Source: Dehalococcoidia bacterium (GTDB lineage: Bacteria > Chloroflexota > Dehalococcoidia > Bin125). Taken from it: a DNA stretch of 64,000 nucleotides. The notes below the pieces were generated by a model, which saw only the letters and a list, made by a program, of their open reading frames with translations, was not told the origin of the DNA and ran no database searches. The stretch covers positions 1,613,844-1,677,843 of the forward strand of contig OZ244861.1 in NCBI GenBank assembly GCA_965221065.1, given 5' to 3'. A program made the translations under genes and the position numbers. This document shows, piece after piece, positions 5,376-45,311 of the stretch. Each line of letters opens with the position of its first letter. Positions within the stretch are counted from its first letter, which is position 1.

Positions 5376-5855
5376 ATGAGTGAGATTCAGAAGATCACGC
5401 CGTCTCTCTGGTTCGACAACCATGCCGAAGCCGCGGTCGAGCTTTACGTCTCGCTGTTCCCCAGCTCGCGAGTTATCAGCGTCGTGAAGATTCCCTCTGG
5501 ACCAGGCGAGGACGGCGCAATCGTCGAGTTCGAGTTGGACGGTCAACGAATGAGCGCCGTTGACGGAGGGCCTATGGTTCAGTTCTCTGAAGCGGTGTCG
5601 TTCGTCGTCTCCTGCGAGACGCAAGAGGAGATTGACCACTACTGGTACGGGCTGTCAGAAGGCGGCGAGCAGCAGCAGTGCGGCTGGCTGAAGGACCCGT
5701 ACGGTCTCTCCTGGCAGATCGTGCCAGCCGAGCTGTCCGAGCTGACGCAGGCGGCGCCGGTGCCGGTGATGGATGCCCTGTTGCAGATGGGCAAGATCGA
5801 GATCGAGCCTCTGCGTCGAGCGGCCGAACACGCCGAGACCCCTAACTCGGACTAA
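5376..5855 (+). CDS. VOC/glyoxalase-superfamily protein (PhnB / 3-demethylubiquinone-9 3-methyltransferase-like)
   Basis: 159-aa ORF; GAAGGA RBS 8 nt before the ATG. Confidence 0.7.
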   Translation: MSEIQKITPSLWFDNHAEAAVELYVSLFPSSRVISVVKIPSGPGEDGAIVEFELDGQRMSAVDGGPMVQFSEAVSFVVSCETQEEIDHYWYGLSEGGEQQQCGWLKDPYGLSWQIVPAELSELTQAAPVPVMDALLQMGKIEIEPLRRAAEHAETPNSD

Positions 5856-5863
5856 CCAACGAT

Positions 5864-7471
5864 CTACACGGAGTACAGCAGCTCCCCATCCACATACGTC
5901 CGCTGCACCACGATTTCGCGGATCGCCTCAGGATCGACCAGCGTCGGATCGTGACTCAGCACGACCAGGTCCGCCCGCTTACCCACCTCGATCGATCCCA
6001 CCTCGTCGTCGCGGAACATCGCGACCGCCGAGTTGATCGTCTGCGTACGCAACGCTTCGAGCGCTGAGAGCGTCTCCTCCTCCGCGATCACATCGCCCTC
6101 CCGCGAGCGGCGCGCGGTCAGACCATACAGCCCAATCAGCGGCTCGACCGGCGCGCAGGGGAAGTCCGAACCGGATGCGACCGTCACTCCCGCATCGAGG
6201 AACAAGCGGTAGGGAAGCGGCGGGATCGTCAGACCCGCCTCGGCGATGAAATCGACGAACCCCTGCCCGACCGAGTACAGGAACGCCGGCTGGTGCGAAA
6301 CGATTACGCCTAGCGAGGCGGCCCGCTCCATCTGGCCGGGGTCGGCGAAGAAGAAGTGCTCGATCCGGTACCGAGCGTCGCTGCGCGGGATCTCCCGCTG
6401 GACCCGCTCGTACGTGTTCAACGCCTGCTCGATCGCCCGGTTGCCAAGGCAGTGAATCGCCGTCTGCAGCCCGTGCGAGGCCGCATTGAGCACGAGCTGA
6501 TCAACCTCGTCCTGGTTGTAGTACGGCTCACCGACATCTTCGAACGTCCCGTCCGCGTGGCACTTGCGCAGCGCATTCGATGGATAGACCGGGTCCATGA
6601 ACAGCTTGACGATCCCGCCCCGCAGCCGGTCCGAGACATCGTCTTGCAGAAACGCGCCGTTCGCGGCCGCCTCCGGCGCGGCGAAGAAGCCGTTGCCCCC
6701 GCGCATCTGGTGGATAACGATCGGAAGCTTGCCGCGTTCGTCGGCGAGCCGATACATCTCGGCGCTCTCCGGCATCACGACCGCATCCCCAACACTGGTC
6801 ACACCGTGCGACAGGTGGCGCAGCGCATTCTGCTCGACCAGATCCGCCACAATCTCTGGACCCAGCGTGTCGATATGCGCGCGCATCGACGCGTGATGCA
6901 CCAGGTCGGACGCCCGCTCGTAGAGCATCCCCGTCGCTTCGCCGCTCTCGTCGCGCAGGATCTGACCACCGCGCGGATCGGGAGTCTCGAAGTTGATCCC
7001 CGCAATCGCCATTGCCTCGGAGTTCGCGTAGCTGGCGTGGTAGGAAAAATCCATCACGCAGACAGGATTGTCCGGCGCCACGTCGTCCAGCTCCGCCCGA
7101 GTCAGCCAGCCGCCGTTCGTATGCCGCGCCCCATACCCCAATCCCCAGATCCACTGCCCTGCGGGAGCCGCATCCGCCGCCGCCGCGAGCGCATCCAGGA
7201 CCGCCGGCTTGCCCGACAGCGGAGGCACTCGGCAATCAACCGAGCGAGGCTCGAATGTCGTCATCGAGAAGTGATTGTGCGGATCGCAGAAGCCGGGGAT
7301 CAGCGCCCGGCCGCGCAGGTCGACATGCGTGGCGTCGGCAGACACCGCGCTCCGCGCCTCGTCGCTGTGACCAACAGCGACGATCTTGCCGTCCCGCACC
7401 GCGACCCCCGACGCGATCCGGTCCAACCCATCCATCGTCAACACGCGTCCGCCGGTGAATAGCAGTTCCAT
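5864..7471 (-). CDS. amidohydrolase-3 family metal-dependent hydrolase (paralog A)
   Basis: 535 aa; HNHFSMT motif; GGGAGGG RBS; about 70% identical to 11103..12719. Confidence 0.85.
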   Translation of the reverse strand: MELLFTGGRVLTMDGLDRIASGVAVRDGKIVAVGHSDEARSAVSADATHVDLRGRALIPGFCDPHNHFSMTTFEPRSVDCRVPPLSGKPAVLDALAAAADAAPAGQWIWGLGYGARHTNGGWLTRAELDDVAPDNPVCVMDFSYHASYANSEAMAIAGINFETPDPRGGQILRDESGEATGMLYERASDLVHHASMRAHIDTLGPEIVADLVEQNALRHLSHGVTSVGDAVVMPESAEMYRLADERGKLPIVIHQMRGGNGFFAAPEAAANGAFLQDDVSDRLRGGIVKLFMDPVYPSNALRKCHADGTFEDVGEPYYNQDEVDQLVLNAASHGLQTAIHCLGNRAIEQALNTYERVQREIPRSDARYRIEHFFFADPGQMERAASLGVIVSHQPAFLYSVGQGFVDFIAEAGLTIPPLPYRLFLDAGVTVASGSDFPCAPVEPLIGLYGLTARRSREGDVIAEEETLSALEALRTQTINSAVAMFRDDEVGSIEVGKRADLVVLSHDPTLVDPEAIREIVVQRTYVDGELLYSV

Positions 7472-39090: not shown

Positions 39091-40031
39091 CGCTCGGCCT
39101 CTTCATCTCCGGCATCGGCTTCGTGAGCCGGGGTGATCACAATCCGGCCGTCCCTCGAATCGACGTAGGCGCGCCGGCCCAGGGCAACCTGGTCGAGCAG
39201 CGGTTTGGGAATCTGCAAACGTCCGGCCCCGTCGACCACGGCGAATTCCTCGTGCACGACCTCGGCGATCTCCGTGCCCGGGTTCTCCACCCGCCGCACC
39301 GTCTCGGTCGCAATCGTGCCGTCGCGAATCGCCACGACGCGGTCGACGCGCGCCGCGATCGCCGGATCGTGGGTGACGATGATGATCGTCAGCCCGAACT
39401 GATTCGAGAGACTGCGGAACAGGTGGAAAATCTCCTCCGAGGTATGCGTGTCCAACTCGCCGGTCGGTTCATCGGCCAGCAGTAGCGGCGGATCGTTGGC
39501 CAGGGCAACGCCGATCGACACGCGCTGCTGCTCCCCGCCCGAGAGCTGGTCCGGGCGCTGCTTGCGTTTGTCCAGCAGTTGCACCGCCTGCAGCAACTGC
39601 ATCGCCCGCTCCCGCGCGTGCTTGCGCGAACGCCCCGCGAGGATCATCGGCACTTCAATGTTCTGCTGCGCGTTGAGGTACGGGATCAGGTTGCGGCCCG
39701 TCTGCTGCCAGACGAATCCGACCTCTTCGCGCCGGTAGTCGACCAGCTCCTGTTCAGTCAGGGCGAGCAGGTCGGCCTTGTTCACGTACGCCTGACCGGC
39801 CGAGGGCACGTCGAGCCCGGCAAGCACGTTGAGCAGCGTCGACTTGCCCGATCCGGACGCGCCGACGATCGCCAGCACCTCGCCCCGCCCGACGGTCAGA
39901 TCGAGCCCGCGCAGCGCCACCACCTCAAGGTCGGCAATCTTGTAGATCTTGAACAGGTCCCTGCAAATGACGTGCTGCTCCGCCAACATCTCGTCCGGAC
40001 GAATCGGCGGAACCGCCGCATTGGTCGTCAT
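39087..40031 (-). CDS. ABC transporter ATP-binding protein (MacB/LolD-type) with C-terminal AbrB/SpoVT-like segment
   Basis: GASGSGKSTL, LSGGEQQRVSIGVAL; C-terminal GRLQIPKPLLDQVALGRRAYV...RIVITP. Confidence 0.8.
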   Translation of the reverse strand: MTTNAAVPPIRPDEMLAEQHVICRDLFKIYKIADLEVVALRGLDLTVGRGEVLAIVGASGSGKSTLLNVLAGLDVPSAGQAYVNKADLLALTEQELVDYRREEVGFVWQQTGRNLIPYLNAQQNIEVPMILAGRSRKHARERAMQLLQAVQLLDKRKQRPDQLSGGEQQRVSIGVALANDPPLLLADEPTGELDTHTSEEIFHLFRSLSNQFGLTIIIVTHDPAIAARVDRVVAIRDGTIATETVRRVENPGTEIAEVVHEEFAVVDGAGRLQIPKPLLDQVALGRRAYVDSRDGRIVITPAHEADAGDEEAER

Positions 40032-40140
40032 CGGTTACCTCAACCTGTCGCGGAAACTCGGAACCGTCGAAAGCACAACATGAGCAGGATACCCCCACAA
40101 CCCACCTACCGGCGATGCAACGTCCGAGCCCTGGTTCCCC

Positions 40141-40278
40141 TCTCCCCCCGCCGTCAGGTGGGGGGAGATGCCGAAGGCAGAGGGGGGCTCCCTTCCGCTC
40201 CCCCCGTTCCGGCCCCCTCTCCCCGAGGGAGAAGCCTGCCCCGCACTTGATGCGGGGGGCTGGGGTGAGGGCCCGCCT
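40141..40278. repeat. cluster of GC hairpin repeat elements (nested CCCTCTCC...GGGTGAGGG element carrying a ccccgcacttgatgcgggg hairpin)
   Basis: Direct comparison with the elements at 2061, 31966, 63040 and the hairpins at 42949/48831. Confidence 0.55.
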
Positions 40279-40361
40279 CAGCCTTCGCCGGGACGGCATA
40301 CACCGGCACCTCCACAGCCTCGCTATCCTGAGATCCCGAGCTTGGCTTGAGGAGACCGCCG

Positions 40362-40631
40362 ATGACCGCGCGCCGTCCCGCCGAGGAGATCGCCCGCCTC
40401 GGCGACCGCATCTACGAGCGCGACATCCGCGCGCAGGTTGAGGACGTCCACGACGGAGCGTTCGTCGCCATCGATGTCGAAAGCGGGAACTGGACCCTCG
40501 CCGAGAACGAGCTTGACGCAATGGTGCGCCTGCGCGAGCGTCAGCCGGACGCGCTCAATGTCTGGCTACTGAGGATCGGCTACCGCGCGATCGCCAGCAT
40601 CGGCGGCGGCGCCCTCCGGGCCCGCAGGTGA
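40362..40631 (+). CDS. small protein partner of retropepsin-like protease (DUF5678-like?)
   Basis: ATG 40362 after GAGGAG; 4-bp overlap (GTGA) with the next gene. Confidence 0.5.
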   Translation: MTARRPAEEIARLGDRIYERDIRAQVEDVHDGAFVAIDVESGNWTLAENELDAMVRLRERQPDALNVWLLRIGYRAIASIGGGALRARR

Positions 40632-40996
40632 TCGAAGGCTCGGTCAACGCAAGCCTCGAGTCGGTCGTCGCGCTCGACTTGCGCGGCCCGACAGGTCAGG
40701 CCCGCTACGTGGATGCCGTAGTGGACACTGGTTTCAGCCGCTTTCTGACGCTGCCGCCGTCGGTAGTGCGGGAGTTGGGACTGCCCTTTGCCGGTGCGCG
40801 CCTGGTGATTCTCGCCGACGGTAGCGAAGTGGCGCTCGAGGCATACGCTGCGACGGTCCTCTGGGATGGTCGGCCGAGGGAGATCGTCGCCTACGCGGCC
40901 GACACGACGCCCCTGATCGGGATGTCCATGCTTGAGGGGCACAGCCTGTACGTGGAAGTCGAAGACGGCGGACACGTCGCTATCGAGGCTCGCTGA
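40628..40996 (+). CDS. retropepsin-like (clan AA) aspartic protease
   Basis: VVDTGFS catalytic motif; 122 aa single-lobe size. Confidence 0.7.
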   Translation: MIEGSVNASLESVVALDLRGPTGQARYVDAVVDTGFSRFLTLPPSVVRELGLPFAGARLVILADGSEVALEAYAATVLWDGRPREIVAYAADTTPLIGMSMLEGHSLYVEVEDGGHVAIEAR

Positions 40997-41028
40997 CGCT
41001 GGCCCGTCTGTGCCCCTCGCGGGAACCC

Positions 41029-42450
41029 TCACCGACCCGGCCAGTGCGCCATCTTGCCTCTCGGTGCATGCGCGATCCGAACCCATTGCAGCTTCGTGGA
41101 GCGCGGCGTCTGCTGCAGCAGTTCGTGCATGTAGCGGTCCGCGTCGAGCAGGTCGTCATTGCGCTTGCGCGGCTTCGGGTCGGGGTCGTCTTCGCGCTGC
41201 TCCCAGACGTACTCGCTCATCCGCAGCGGGAACTGCGTGAGCTCGGGCACGTAGAACGACGCGGGCGGGTCCGACGCAACACGCTCGTGGACGAGGTTGA
41301 TCCCGTAGAGCACCGAGCCGGGACCACCCGCGGCGGGCTCGATGTCGATGCCCTGGCGGCGCTGGTGGTCGATCCAGGCCGATTGCGAGCGATCCGCGGC
41401 CCAGCGGATCGGTCCGAAGCGCTGCCGGCAGTGGCGCTGCCACTGCTCGAGCCGCTGGATGACGCCGGGTCCGCGATCCTCGAACTCGGCCACGCGGATC
41501 AGGGTGTAGGGGTGCGTGCCGGCGAGGCCCGCCACGATTCCCGCGCTGTAGTGGGCCGTATCGGTCTGGCCGCCGAAGTCGAGCCCGCCGATGTAGCGCC
41601 CGAACTCCGGTAGCGGCCGCTCCCAGCGCTGGCGGTCCGGATCGAAGTCGGGGTAGACGCGGCCCATCAACGCGTCGAAGCGGCCCTCGATGAAGCGCTC
41701 GCGCCAGCGCGGCGGCATCAACGCGTGGTTCAGCTCGGCGTAGTTCTCTGGCAGATGCGGGTTGTCCTCAATCCGGGCGCGGATGAAGCTGACCTGTCCC
41801 CGCGCGTCGCGCAGCACGTCCTCGGGCAACTCGCGCCGCACGAACCAGCGCTGGAACCAGCCCGGCCAGGGGTTCGAGGCGGCCACGAACCAGCGCTGCG
41901 GTTGGGCCGGATGGCGCAGACGCGTGAGCAGCATCAACGCCGCTTCCTCCTCCACCTGTCCGGCCTCGTCGATCAGCACCGATCCGTACTCCTGCGAGCC
42001 CAGACCCTGCCAGTCGGAGAGGTGGCGGAAGTTGACGGTCGAGGTCCGGTCCGCGGGCCAGGTGGGCAGCCGCAGCTGGACCAGGCTGGTCGGGGCCTGC
42101 TGGCGGCGCGCGATCAGATCCGGCGGGCAGACGTGGAATAACTCCTTCATGGTGGTCGAGGAGAGGTCGGAGAGATGGTGTCGGGCGACGAGCACGTTGT
42201 TGCCGGGGTAGGCGCAGGCGGCGTCGATCGCGAGCTCGGCAATGGCGCGCGTCTTGCCGCCGCCCATTGCGCCGCCGTAGCCGAGCAGGCACAAGCCCGG
42301 GCTGGGCGCCTCCGTGAGGGCGCTATAGAGCTCGCGTTGGCGCGAGGTGGGAAAAAAACCGCGGTCGTCGTGGAGGGGATGCCCCCCTCTGCCTGCGGCA
42401 TCTCCCCCCGCCCCGGGCGGGGGGAGCGGGGCATGGGGATTAGGGGACAT
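41029..42450 (-). CDS. terL: phage terminase large subunit (TerL)
   Basis: F.PT.RQRELY...GYGGAMGGGKT Walker A, VLIDEAG Walker B, C-terminal RNase-H-like nuclease (GGLDFGGQTDTAH); AAGAGG RBS. Confidence 0.8.
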   Translation of the reverse strand: MSPNPHAPLPPPGAGGDAAGRGGHPLHDDRGFFPTSRQRELYSALTEAPSPGLCLLGYGGAMGGGKTRAIAELAIDAACAYPGNNVLVARHHLSDLSSTTMKELFHVCPPDLIARRQQAPTSLVQLRLPTWPADRTSTVNFRHLSDWQGLGSQEYGSVLIDEAGQVEEEAALMLLTRLRHPAQPQRWFVAASNPWPGWFQRWFVRRELPEDVLRDARGQVSFIRARIEDNPHLPENYAELNHALMPPRWRERFIEGRFDALMGRVYPDFDPDRQRWERPLPEFGRYIGGLDFGGQTDTAHYSAGIVAGLAGTHPYTLIRVAEFEDRGPGVIQRLEQWQRHCRQRFGPIRWAADRSQSAWIDHQRRQGIDIEPAAGGPGSVLYGINLVHERVASDPPASFYVPELTQFPLRMSEYVWEQREDDPDPKPRKRNDDLLDADRYMHELLQQTPRSTKLQWVRIAHAPRGKMAHWPGR

Positions 42451-42829
42451 CGTCATCCTCTTGCCTGGCGGCCTCCTCGTCGTCTGCTTCGGAGTCCTCC
42501 TGGGTGGCGTACATGGAGAAGTCGGTCAGGTCGACCCCGTCGGCGAGGGCCTGCGCGAGCGGACCCAACGGCTCCCGCTGCGACTGCATGTCGCGCTCGG
42601 CGCGCTGGGCGAGTTCCTGGGCCAATTGGCTGGCCAGTTGTTTGGCCAGTTGGGTGCCGAGTTCGAACAGGCCGTTGACGCGGGCCATCATGCCCAGGGC
42701 CTTGATGCGAACGTGCGACGGTCCGTTGGCGGCTTCGTGGGCGATGCCGGCTTTGATCGCGGCGTCGGTGTAGGGAACGGGCGGTTTGAGTTGGTTGGTG
42801 GCGGCGTTGATGGCGGTCATGGCGGTCAT
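42440..42829 (-). CDS. hypothetical protein, possible terminase small subunit
   Basis: 129 aa, coiled-coil middle, acidic tail; GAGAGGA RBS; 11-nt overlap with terL start. Confidence 0.35.
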   Translation of the reverse strand: MTAMTAINAATNQLKPPVPYTDAAIKAGIAHEAANGPSHVRIKALGMMARVNGLFELGTQLAKQLASQLAQELAQRAERDMQSQREPLGPLAQALADGVDLTDFSMYATQEDSEADDEEAARQEDDDVP

Positions 42830-42934
42830 GGTTGGCGGTCCTCTCGGGAATGGCGGGCGATCGAGTGTATGCGCACTGGTGTTCTATGTGGGGAATCGTT
42901 GTGTGGTGTGGTTGACGGATGGCGGTGGGGCGAC

Positions 42935-43460
42935 GGTGGGAGTCTGGGCCCCGCATCAAGTGCGGGGCATCGGGAGGGGCGAGCGGGGCGTCGGAGGGGC
43001 GTGCGGGGCGTCGGAGGGGGAGGGTGGGGGGCCTCGGGAGGGGAGGGTGCGGGGCATCGGGAGACGAAGGTGTGGGGCGTCGGGAGGGGGAGGGTGGGGG
43101 GCGCTGATTCGATCCTCCGCGCTTGACGCGGGGGCCAGAACGGCTGCTGGGCGTGGAGGTTGGTGGTCGGTAGAGGGTCTACTGGGATGGCTGCGTTGGG
43201 GGAGGCGTTCGGGTTGGGGGCGAGGGTGGAGGTCTGGGCCCCGCATCAAGTGCGGGGCATCGGAAGAGGAGGGTGCGGGGCGTCGGAGGGAGGTGCGGGG
43301 CGTCGGGAGAGGCGTGAGAAGGGGGAGTGGATGGGGGGCGCTGATTCGATCCCCCGCGCTTGACGCGGGGGCCAGAACGGTCGCTGGGCGTGGAGGTTGG
43401 TGGTCGGTAGAGGGTCTACTGGGAGGGCTGAGTTGGAGGAGGCGTTCGGGTTGGGGCCGA
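42935..43460. repeat. two tandem about 230-280-bp direct repeats, each with a CCCCGCATCAAGTGCGGGG hairpin, an about 21-bp minisatellite (gcggggcgtcgggaggggagggt) and a CCCCCGCGCTTGACGCGGGGG hairpin
   Basis: Copy 1 is about 42935-43214, copy 2 about 43215-43458, about 90% identical; minisatellite copy number differs between copies. Confidence 0.7.
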
Positions 43461-43474
43461 CGTATACTTTTTCC

Positions 43475-43774
43475 ATGTCTCGGTCCGAGACTCAGCCTGC
43501 GGTGTACATCCTTGCGAGCCAGCGGAATGGGACTCTGTATGTGGGCCATACGGCGGACCTTGTTCGACGGGTGACGGAGCATCGGGAGGGTCGCGGGGCG
43601 CGCTTTACGTCCGAGTATTTTGTGCGCCGGCTGGTCTGGTACGAGTTCCACGACAGTCTCGACGATGCGCAGCGTCGTGAGAGTCTTGTGAAGCGCTGGA
43701 AGCGGAAGTGGAAGCTTGAGCTGATTGAGTCGCATAATCCTGGGTGGCGGGATCTGTATCACGAGTTGGCTTAA
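43475..43774 (+). CDS. GIY-YIG nuclease family protein (COG2827/UPF0213)
   Basis: VYILASQRNGTLYVGHTADLVRRVTEH; about 58% GC; AT-rich tatacttttt just upstream. Confidence 0.75.
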   Translation: MSRSETQPAVYILASQRNGTLYVGHTADLVRRVTEHREGRGARFTSEYFVRRLVWYEFHDSLDDAQRRESLVKRWKRKWKLELIESHNPGWRDLYHELA

Positions 43775-43776
43775 GT

Positions 43777-44012
43777 GAATTCGATGCCCCGCGCTTGAAG
43801 CGGGGGCTATGGGTGGCTGGCGGATCTGGTGGGAGGGCTGAGTTGGGGACGGCGCTTGGGTTTGGGGGCGAGGGTGGCGGTCTGGGCCCCGCATCAAGTG
43901 CGGGGCATCGGAACGGGAGGGTGCGGGGGCAGCGGAGGGGAGAGTGCGGGCGTTGGAAGGGGCGTGCGGGGCGTTGGAAGGGGCGTGCGGGGCGGGAGGG
44001 GAGGATGGGGGG
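43777..44012. repeat. third (rearranged/partial) copy of the 42935-43460 repeat unit
   Basis: ttcgatgccccgcgcttgaagcggggg...ggtctgggccccgcatcaagtgcgggg plus minisatellite units. Confidence 0.6.
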
Positions 44013-44585
44013 TTAGACCGGCCCGATGCAGTCCGCGATGTTCTCGATGAACTCGATCGGCGAGCACTTGTCGAACCACTGGCCGGTGTGCAGGGTGTAC
44101 TCGTGGAAGATCTTGAGCGCGCCCAGGAAGAGCAGCCAGCGCACGGCCTCAGCCCCTCGGAGCGGCGCGGGCGTCCCGTCCTCCGCCTCGGCCCAACCCG
44201 GTCTCAACCGCGCCGGCCAGTGCGGCCGCGCGGCGACGAACAGGAACCAGAACTCGAACACGTGCGGGAAGTAGATCAGGATGCCCCGACCGGCGCCGGC
44301 CGTGAACGCGATGAAGCCGATCAGTCGCCAGGCGAACAGCCCCAGCGCCACCCGCCGCTCCCAGCCGCCCCAGCGCAGCGCGACGATCAGGAAGAGCCAG
44401 ATGTACACCTGGTCGACCCACTTGTCCCACTCCTGGTAGTTCGACAGTCCGCCCAGGTCGATGGCCTGGCGCAGGAACAGGTCCGAAAGGTCGATGAAGA
44501 CCGCGATCAGCCCGCCGACGAACGCCCAGCGCAAGACTGGCAAGGATCCGGCCACGCGGATCAGGGCGATAACCAGGGCTTCCAT
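44013..44585 (-). CDS. hypothetical integral membrane protein
   Basis: 190 aa, about 5 hydrophobic segments. Confidence 0.5.
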   Translation of the reverse strand: MEALVIALIRVAGSLPVLRWAFVGGLIAVFIDLSDLFLRQAIDLGGLSNYQEWDKWVDQVYIWLFLIVALRWGGWERRVALGLFAWRLIGFIAFTAGAGRGILIYFPHVFEFWFLFVAARPHWPARLRPGWAEAEDGTPAPLRGAEAVRWLLFLGALKIFHEYTLHTGQWFDKCSPIEFIENIADCIGPV

Positions 44586-44621: not shown

Positions 44622-45311
44622 CTAGTCGGCGCCGTTGTCGATCCCGTGCTGCCGCTCGAAGCGGCCGGTGACCTGGAAGATCGTGCGCTCGCAGATGTTC
44701 AGCGCGCGATCGCCAATCCGCTCGAGGTTGTGCGAGCACCAGAGCACGTGCGTGATCGCGTCCGACTCCTCGGGGTTGCCCTCCGCGCCCGCCAGCCGCG
44801 TGATCAGCCGTTCGTGGATGTCGCTGTACAGCTCGTCGACCTCGTCGTCCTGCCCGATCGTCAGTCGGGCGAGACGCTGATCGCGTTCGAGGAATGACCG
44901 TGTGGCCGACTGCAACATCTCGCGAACGACGTCGGCCATGCGCCAGAGGTCCGGTTCGGTCGCGGCGACCGGGTTGTCCTCGAGGAAGATCGCGTTGCGG
45001 GCGATGCCCTCCGCGTGCCCGGCGATGCGTTCCAGGTTGAGCGTGATCGCGACCACCGACAACAGCTCGCGCAGGTCGCCGGCGACGGGCTGCTGCAGCG
45101 CGATGATCGTGGTGACCGCCTCTTCGATCGCGTAGCGCACCTGCTTGGCTTCCTCGTCCGCCTCGCAGACTCGGCGGGCGAGCACGAGGTCGCGGCGCAG
45201 CAGGGCCTGCATCGCGTCGACGATCGAGCGGTCGGCGCGCGCGTGCTGGAGGCGCAGGCGGTCGAGGATGTCGGCCCGATCCGAGGAGTACGTCAGCCGT
45301 ACGGTTGACAT
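44622..45311 (-). CDS. phoU: phosphate signalling complex protein PhoU
   Basis: Two PhoU repeats; adjacent to pstB. Confidence 0.85.
   Translation of the reverse strand: MSTVRLTYSSDRADILDRLRLQHARADRSIVDAMQALLRRDLVLARRVCEADEEAKQVRYAIEEAVTTIIALQQPVAGDLRELLSVVAITLNLERIAGHAEGIARNAIFLEDNPVAATEPDLWRMADVVREMLQSATRSFLERDQRLARLTIGQDDEVDELYSDIHERLITRLAGAEGNPEESDAITHVLWCSHNLERIGDRALNICERTIFQVTGRFERQHGIDNGAD

Follow-up and report, generated by a model that had tools for sequence, protein, structure and literature searches.

In the genome of a Dehalococcoidia bacterium (contig OZ244861.1), a stretch of 64,000 nucleotides (nt; positions 1,613,844 to 1,677,843, hereafter the window) carries a gene for a small protein of 89 amino acids (aa) that overlaps by four bases a gene for a 122-aa protein with the active-site motif of an aspartic protease. 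The locus raises the question of why a retropepsin-like protease should be encoded in such tight coupling with a small protein, and what the two would do together. It was found that this pairing recurs in related genomes in an arrangement far beyond chance. The preferred explanation, to which a probability of roughly 40% is assigned, is a module of the toxin-antitoxin (TA) or defence-addiction kind, with the protease held in check by its small partner.

Conservation of the gene pair

The original prediction, which was made from the letters of the window, had described an 89-aa open reading frame (ORF) behind a GAGGAG ribosome-binding site, a GTGA overlap and a 122-aa ORF with VVDTGFS, and all of them were found where it had placed them (Table 1). 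An alternative in-frame TTG at 40347 would extend the small protein to 94 aa; the homologues begin at the position of the ATG instead. In related loci, GGAG or GAGG boxes are comparably placed before the start of the small gene. On the other strand, two long ORFs (39925-40521 and 40580-41086) merely shadow the pair, as is typical in DNA of 68% G+C.

A scan with one genome per species brought up no fewer than 454 relatives of the small gene, and the best 80 loci were analysed. These came from Dehalococcoidia, Tepidiformaceae, Caldilineaceae, other Chloroflexota and Acidimicrobiales, with sub-samples of 71 junctions, 68 intact proteases and 76 distinct upstream regions. A protease homologue lies immediately downstream of the small gene in 74 of the 80 loci, showing that the pair is conserved across genomes. 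The coupling-type overlap that had been proposed for the window is also kept, with a 4-base NTGA in 67 of the 71 junctions (57 GTGA, 5 ATGA and 5 TTGA). The pairwise distances of the two proteins are correlated (r = 0.82; no permutation exceeded 0.14), which indicates that the pair is inherited and diverges as a unit. At the level of the sequences, both genes are evidently under purifying selection. The dN/dS ratios (non-synonymous to synonymous substitution rates, by Nei-Gojobori) were ~0.24 for the small gene and ~0.21 for the protease gene, values that are approximate because dS is near saturation.

The pair was found in Chloroflexota, Acidimicrobiales and Cyanobacteriota. In cyanobacteria the small genes again show a 4-base overlap, followed by DTGF proteins of 125-127 aa. 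These partner proteases scored 49.6-52.1 bits against the NCBIfam model TIGR03698 (clan_AA_DTGF, clan AA aspartic protease), just below its curated cut-off of 57.35 bits. When a metagenome scan was seeded with the protease, which gave nine loci and is thus a small sample for a census of orphan proteases, the small gene was present upstream of all six intact proteases.

Where the pair decays, it is mostly the protease that is affected. At 13 of the 80 loci an intact small gene is accompanied by a truncated or frameshifted protease gene, or the protease has been deleted; N-terminal remnants of it, e.g. VIEGVVNA, are still visible at decayed loci. Junction defects in the small gene were limited to about two cases.

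The protease and its small partner

The 122-aa protein scored 59.3 bits (E = 4e-16) against TIGR03698, above the cut-off. The two Pfam families that had been named for it beforehand, Asp_protease_2 (PF13650) and gag-asp_proteas (PF13975), were matched in the correct region, at 20.7 and 18.7 bits; neither match reached its gathering threshold (24.3 and 28.2 bits, respectively), and no other Pfam family matched the protein. A precomputed PF13650 match is present on some of the close homologues. The catalytic D-T-G signature held on alignment: it is invariant in all 68 intact homologues from related loci, where F or Y comes next.

The AlphaFold2 (AF2) model of the protease was of moderate confidence (predicted local distance difference test, pLDDT, 70.6). 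In a Foldseek comparison with the PDB, the top matches were the proteases of xenotropic murine leukaemia virus-related virus (XMRV), human T-lymphotropic virus 1 (HTLV-1), human immunodeficiency virus 1 (HIV-1), equine infectious anaemia virus (EIAV) and foamy virus, together with pepsin lobes. The probability was 1.00 and the template modelling (TM) scores were 0.5-0.64, with a best E-value of only 5e-3. No solved structure was detected for the protease by sequence search. The predicted fold, together with the passed TIGR03698 cut-off and the DTG, supports the assignment of the 122-aa protein as a single-lobe retropepsin-type clan AA enzyme, as had been supposed. By analogy with such enzymes, it would have to dimerise to form an active site with two aspartates. 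Its N-terminus (MIEGSVNA) is conserved and soluble-looking, from which the protease is read here as probably cytosolic.

The original prediction had regarded such proteases as rare in bacteria, a view that found no support. A total of 878 close relatives of the protease were detected, several of which carry the routine NCBI name 'clan AA aspartic protease', and the small-protein family described below exceeds 7,000 clusters. Prokaryotic retropepsin-like proteases are abundant and only a handful have been studied. RimB (rimABK operon), RloA (Pseudomonas) and APRc (Rickettsia) are described as homodimers with a single-lobe DTG domain and as one of the few studied prokaryotic clan AA groups (PMC12239564, PMC11957791, PMC4140852). 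They differ from the present protease in that RloA is secreted, RimB acts on polyglutamylated RpsF from a three-gene operon, and none of them is paired with this small family. APRc is membrane-associated. With TIGR03698, the window protein is linked by a score above the cut-off, the DTGF signature and the retropepsin-like predicted fold, and RefSeq names its homologues clan AA aspartic protease. TIGR03698 is, however, a sequence model from whose annotation the upstream partner is absent, the latter being called 'hypothetical protein'. A search of the literature and of structures revealed no described function, partner or solved structure for TIGR03698.

Retroviral Gag-Pro is resembled in the predicted fold and in the reading frame, since the protease is read in the -1 frame with respect to the ORF before it, a shift known from many gag-pro junctions. 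The pair differs from Gag-Pro and from Ddi1-type proteins in its ordinary stop/start overlap without a slippery heptamer, in an identity of 13-19% to the viral enzymes, and in the absence of reverse transcriptase, integrase and capsid genes nearby.

For the small protein, 106 close homologues were collected. The family comprises 3,059 clusters at 50% identity (exhaustive hidden Markov model search, E <= 1e-3) and, when clustered at 90% identity, upwards of 7,289 (profile search). Many of its members are cyanobacterial (Nostoc, Leptolyngbya, Scytonema, Sodalinema and Spirulina), and they are annotated as 'hypothetical protein' throughout, save for two evidently spurious names from the Joint Genome Institute. 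Searches of Pfam, NCBIfam, PADLOC and the PDB with the small protein and 51 family members gave no significant match. DUF5678 (PF18929), which had been suggested for the small protein, was checked with the window protein and with 33 and 18 family members at E <= 10 and E <= 1; the suggestion was not borne out, with no Pfam match in the 51 members, although the HMMER filters may hide very weak ones. Against PHROGs there was a single marginal match (E = 0.09), and Foldseek searches of the small-protein model against the PDB and BFVD returned noise only. No relevant paper on TIGR03698 or DUF5678 was found in the literature search.

The AF2 model of the small protein was confident (pLDDT 83). The predicted order is a helix (residues 7-26), two strands forming a hairpin (34-38 and 44-47), a second helix (50-60), a further strand (67-71) and a low-confidence tail. 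The tail is predicted to be disordered, with a mean pLDDT of 64 for residues 71-80 and values below 50 for residues 78-89. It is equally conserved as the folded core: tail residues 72-82 (GYRAIASIGGG) have an entropy of 0.69 bits, against 0.53-0.84 bits for the core, and the motif R-x-G-Y/H-R...F/I-G-G is retained in the cyanobacterial members. Since tails that are conserved yet disordered usually mark partner-binding segments, we infer that this tail is an element that binds the protease.

Many members of the family consist of two or three tandem copies of the domain (P0227-P0310, e.g. P0227 and P0269; also P0375), a form that would suit a dimeric partner. In P0289, the N-terminal region, fused ahead of a small domain, resembles on inspection a degenerate protease domain without DTG. 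In one metagenome contig (L096, 935-1876), a single ORF (P0316) joins two small domains and a DTGF protease in a polyprotein of 313 aa. Seen on this one contig only, it could be either a genuine fusion of the Gag-Pro kind or the product of a 1-base assembly error.

The same tail also admits a different explanation, that of a maturation or substrate cassette. The protease would then cleave the tail of the small protein, e.g. around the GGG motif, and the small protein would be the real effector, which cleavage would activate, release or destroy. The conserved, glycine-rich tail of predicted disorder would fit this reading, as would the strict coupling and co-divergence of the genes and the small-small-protease polyprotein that recalls Gag-Pro. 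The fusion, however, comes from a single contig with its possible 1-base error, and no effector fold was recognised in the core of the small protein. Orphan small genes moreover stay intact after the loss of the protease, which would be odd were processing required, and no conjugation or export genes are shared around the pair in the 81 loci whose neighbourhoods were compared. A substrate cassette is hence considered rather unlikely.

Autonomy and likeness to toxin-antitoxin systems

Neighbourhoods were clustered with all ORFs within 6 kb at 81 loci. Only the two genes and their antisense shadows are common to these loci, and any other cluster occurs in at most 11 of them. The next-commonest clusters are an ORF that runs antisense over the protease gene's 3' end and paralogous families of a generic kind, such as ABC ATPases, short-chain dehydrogenases and serine recombinases. 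A 98%-identical copy (L094) keeps the synteny of the window with a fragmented terminase gene, and an 85%-identical copy is surrounded by unrelated metabolic genes. From this the pair is seen to be an autonomous unit moving between contexts.

Two or more loci per genome were present in at least 12 genomes among the top 80, with further copies on some of the flanks. The paralogues of one genome are mostly 54-67% identical. At locus L020 (6001-7286) a full pair is followed by two more copies of the small gene without proteases, and L021 (5538-10684) holds an orphan small gene and two pairs, the second at a distance of 4 kb. In Sodalinema gerasimenkoae (L084), all that follows the main-family small gene is a 56-aa remnant of the protease. 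At 5667-6303 of the same locus, a 71-aa ORF overlaps a 142-aa Asp_protease_2-like ORF; this 71-aa ORF is unrelated to the small-protein family (hhalign probability 0.2%), which suggests that other retropepsin subfamilies may have small upstream partners of their own.

The protease was found on nine cyanobacterial plasmids, seven of which are predicted to be conjugative or mobilisable. In Nostoc sp. PCC 7120, the conjugative plasmid pCC7120alpha carries the pair (WP_010999914.1 and WP_010999913.1) immediately next to ParD/ParE and the nuclease-inhibitor pair NucA/NuiA; its small protein was placed in the family by hhalign with a probability of 98%. On pNSMS101 of Nostoc sp. MS1 (L098, 2977-3614), the pair, whose genes here too overlap by four bases, separates pglZ from pglX in a type 1 bacteriophage exclusion (BREX-1) locus. 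An IS630 transposase adjoins pglX there, and the pair may be either a passenger or an accessory of that locus. Among the neighbours of other copies are BrnT, whose gene is followed by a small ORF, a DUF433 pair, ParE, two PIN genes with HicA/HicB, a HigA-like helix-turn-helix (HTH) gene, AbiEi and Uma2, as well as a pair that resembles VapBC by eye. The Pfam scan of neighbours covered ten hand-picked ORFs (eight neighbours of loci and two window ORFs). In Sulfolobales, proteins of the Saci_1895 type (~100 aa, retropepsin domain) adjoin type III-D CRISPR-Cas systems (PMC3973734). They have the defence context in common with the present pair, but they are archaeal and CRISPR-linked, and no such small partner has been described for them.

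The pair seems to be equipped for its own expression. A/T-rich hexamers resembling a -10 box (GCTATCCT, TAGAAT, TAGACT, TATACT and similar) were present within 110 nt 5' of the small gene at 59 of the 76 distinct loci, against 3.3 +/- 1.7 for the same list in random windows of the same loci, a contrast that is suggestive only, because the list was chosen by eye from those sequences. A strict sigma-70 scan and a terminator scan gave no match, and an Rfam search of the region of the pair gave no family match.

On these grounds the following mechanism may be proposed. The pair would be an autonomous bicistronic module with a promoter-like element and a ribosome-binding site of its own, and the protease would be translated through coupling at the GTGA overlap; by virtue of this coupling, it would never be made without its small partner. 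The small protein would bind the protease through its conserved disordered C-terminal tail and hold it inactive, the tail acting either as a pseudo-substrate in the cleft or as a blocker of dimerisation. If the small protein were lost or titrated, the protease would be freed onto cellular or invader proteins. The binding, the inhibition, the toxicity and a role in plasmid maintenance or phage defence are all inferred. An analogy for the proposed action of the tail exists in yeast. IA3 is a small protein, wholly disordered when alone, that inhibits proteinase A by filling its active-site cleft, and the tail of the present small protein would resemble it in such cleft occupancy. The analogy is functional and implies no homology: the target of IA3 is a two-lobed eukaryotic enzyme of the pepsin type, and IA3 is not encoded in an operon.

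The likeness to type II TA systems (e.g. ParDE, VapBC, HicAB) extends to the small upstream gene, the 4-base overlap, the downstream effector and the autonomy of the unit, to the variable contexts, the divergent paralogues, the plasmid copies, the company of TA and defence genes and the preferential decay of the effector, and to an upstream protein with a conserved disordered C-terminal region, comparable to the toxin-binding regions of antitoxins. Variable context, divergent copies, plasmids, TA and BREX sites and protease decay speak for the TA-like reading circumstantially. The pair would depart from these systems in having as its effector an aspartic protease, a class for which no TA precedent was found.

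Several observations weigh against a TA-like module. The literature search revealed no description of an aspartic-protease toxin, and neither protein matched the TA models of PADLOC and Pfam. No DNA-binding or antitoxin fold or family (HTH, ribbon-helix-helix, AbrB, Phd) was recognised in the small protein. Operator-like palindromes were missing too: stems of upstream inverted repeats were not enriched over shuffled sequences (4.67 vs 4.83), so that classical autoregulation through an operator is unsupported. The GC content of the pair is the same as that of its surroundings, from which it follows that this copy is not a recent import. The majority of neighbours are ordinary housekeeping genes, the co-location with TA and defence genes being seen in individual cases. 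Finally, the asymmetry of decay was sampled mainly through seeding with the small gene and is thereby biased, the protease-seeded sample amounting to nine loci.

The ordinary neighbours, the native GC content and the missing palindromes are also what would be expected of housekeeping proteolysis, in which the small protein would be an adaptor or activator that delivers substrates or aids dimerisation, and the pair would be neither toxic nor selfish. RimB, a characterised cytosolic retropepsin, acts within a regulatory operon (PMC11957791). Such a function is nevertheless unlikely. Divergent paralogues within one genome, a fully variable neighbourhood and sites on plasmids and within BREX and TA clusters are unexpected traits for a housekeeping pair, as is the frequent loss of the protease while the small gene is kept.

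The TA-like module therefore remains the preferred reading. A more far-reaching version of it, in which the pair represents an unrecognised and widespread TA or abortive-infection family with a cytosolic retropepsin as effector and an antidote from a dark family with an inhibitory tail, is possible, if on the doubtful side. The protease family as such is already known; its obligatory pairing and its TA- or defence-like behaviour are undescribed in the literature searched, and full-text searches brought up no paper in which a retropepsin-like protease is connected with an antitoxin or with a small partner of this type. What the pairing adds is that one subfamily of these proteases is tied to a specific partner, from a large family without a Pfam model, a name or a structural relative. 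If the TA-like reading is true, the pair would bring a new enzymatic class into the TA and defence repertoire, with the first aspartic-protease toxin. It would also yield a naturally occurring protein that inhibits a retropepsin, and a parallel among prokaryotes to the regulated activation of retroviral proteases. The hypothesis is directly testable, because Nostoc/Anabaena sp. PCC 7120, which has the module on its plasmid pCC7120alpha, is genetically tractable.

Surroundings of the pair in the window

The features of the pair and of the flanking DNA are collected in Table 1. Downstream, a gene for an orphan terminase large subunit is convergent with the protease gene at a distance of 33 nt and has no portal or capsid genes nearby. 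It looks like a decaying prophage remnant, because it is split into two fragments in L094.

Table 1. Positions of the two-gene unit and of neighbouring features in the window (numbered from its first letter)
Feature	Position	Strand	Remarks
ORF resembling an ABC_tran gene of L094	37966-39090	-	alike in position and size
ORF resembling an ABC_tran gene of L094	39087-40031	-	alike in position and size
32-nt inverted repeat	40157-40188 / 42381-42412		94% complementary; brackets the pair and the terminase gene
REP-like hairpin copies	40237-40257, 42949-42969, 43239-43259, 43887-43907
Promoter-like -10 box GCTATCCT	40322-40329	+	TATCCT at 40324-40329; 32 nt upstream of the small-gene ATG
Shine-Dalgarno GAGGAG	40349-40354	+	7 nt 5' of the ATG; direct sequence reading
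Small-protein gene	40362-40631	+	ATG start; 89 aa; stop TGA 40629-40631
Codons of the small-protein C-terminal tail	40575-40628	+	residues 72-89, GYRAIASIGGGALRARR
GTGA overlap	40628-40631	+	protease GTG start over small-gene TGA stop
Protease gene	40628-40996	+	GTG start; 122 aa; stop 40994-40996
Codons GAC ACT GGT	40724-40732	+	catalytic D33-T34-G35; VVDTGFS is residues 31-37
Orphan terminase large-subunit gene	41029-42456	-	Pfam Terminase_3, Terminase_6N; PHROG 2, E = 5e-28
129-aa ORF	42440-42829	-	overlaps the terminase gene, upstream of it; no family match
G-rich repeat field	42900-44050		GC skew up to +0.49
125-aa ORF, GIY-YIG nuclease domain	43397-43774	+	Pfam E = 1e-15; within the repeat field
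PhoU-domain gene	44622-45311	-	Pfam E = 4e-38

This neighbourhood suggested a further explanation, in which the pair would be cargo of a prophage or mobile element together with the terminase and the repeats, e.g. a capsid-maturation protease plus scaffold. The pair is convergent with the terminase gene, and the 32-nt inverted repeat and hairpins of the repetitive extragenic palindrome (REP) type bracket both. The original prediction had likewise tied the pair to the adjacent mobile DNA, a link that was lost once relatives were compared: the terminase is common to none of the 80 related loci, the 85%-identical copy lies in an unrelated context, and the closest relative has a broken terminase beside an intact pair. 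No relative of the pair was found in IMG/VR (scanned with closer alignment) or in 50,697 phage records of GenBank. PHROGs gave no match for the protease, the marginal match of the small protein being the only one. Cargo of this kind is thus very improbable, and the terminase and the repeats beside the pair are incidental in the window. This reading, and with it a phage capsid-maturation or packaging module, is largely refuted by the lack of linkage to a terminase (0/80) and of relatives in phage records. The 32-nt inverted repeat itself could mark a former mobile segment or represent two copies of a dispersed repeat.

The repeat field contains degenerate arrays of the GGGGCGTCGGAGGGG type, direct repeats of 138 nt and 75 nt, and the REP-like hairpin (CCCCGCATCAAGTGCGGGG). 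One copy of the hairpin, in inverted orientation, lies directly upstream of the promoter region of the small gene. The GIY-YIG ORF shares its 5' end with a copy of the 138-nt direct repeat. The two ABC_tran-like ORFs and the PhoU gene frame this variable segment and are syntenic in L094; the sizes of the former (window/L094) are 374 aa for one ORF and 314 aa vs 213 aa for the other.

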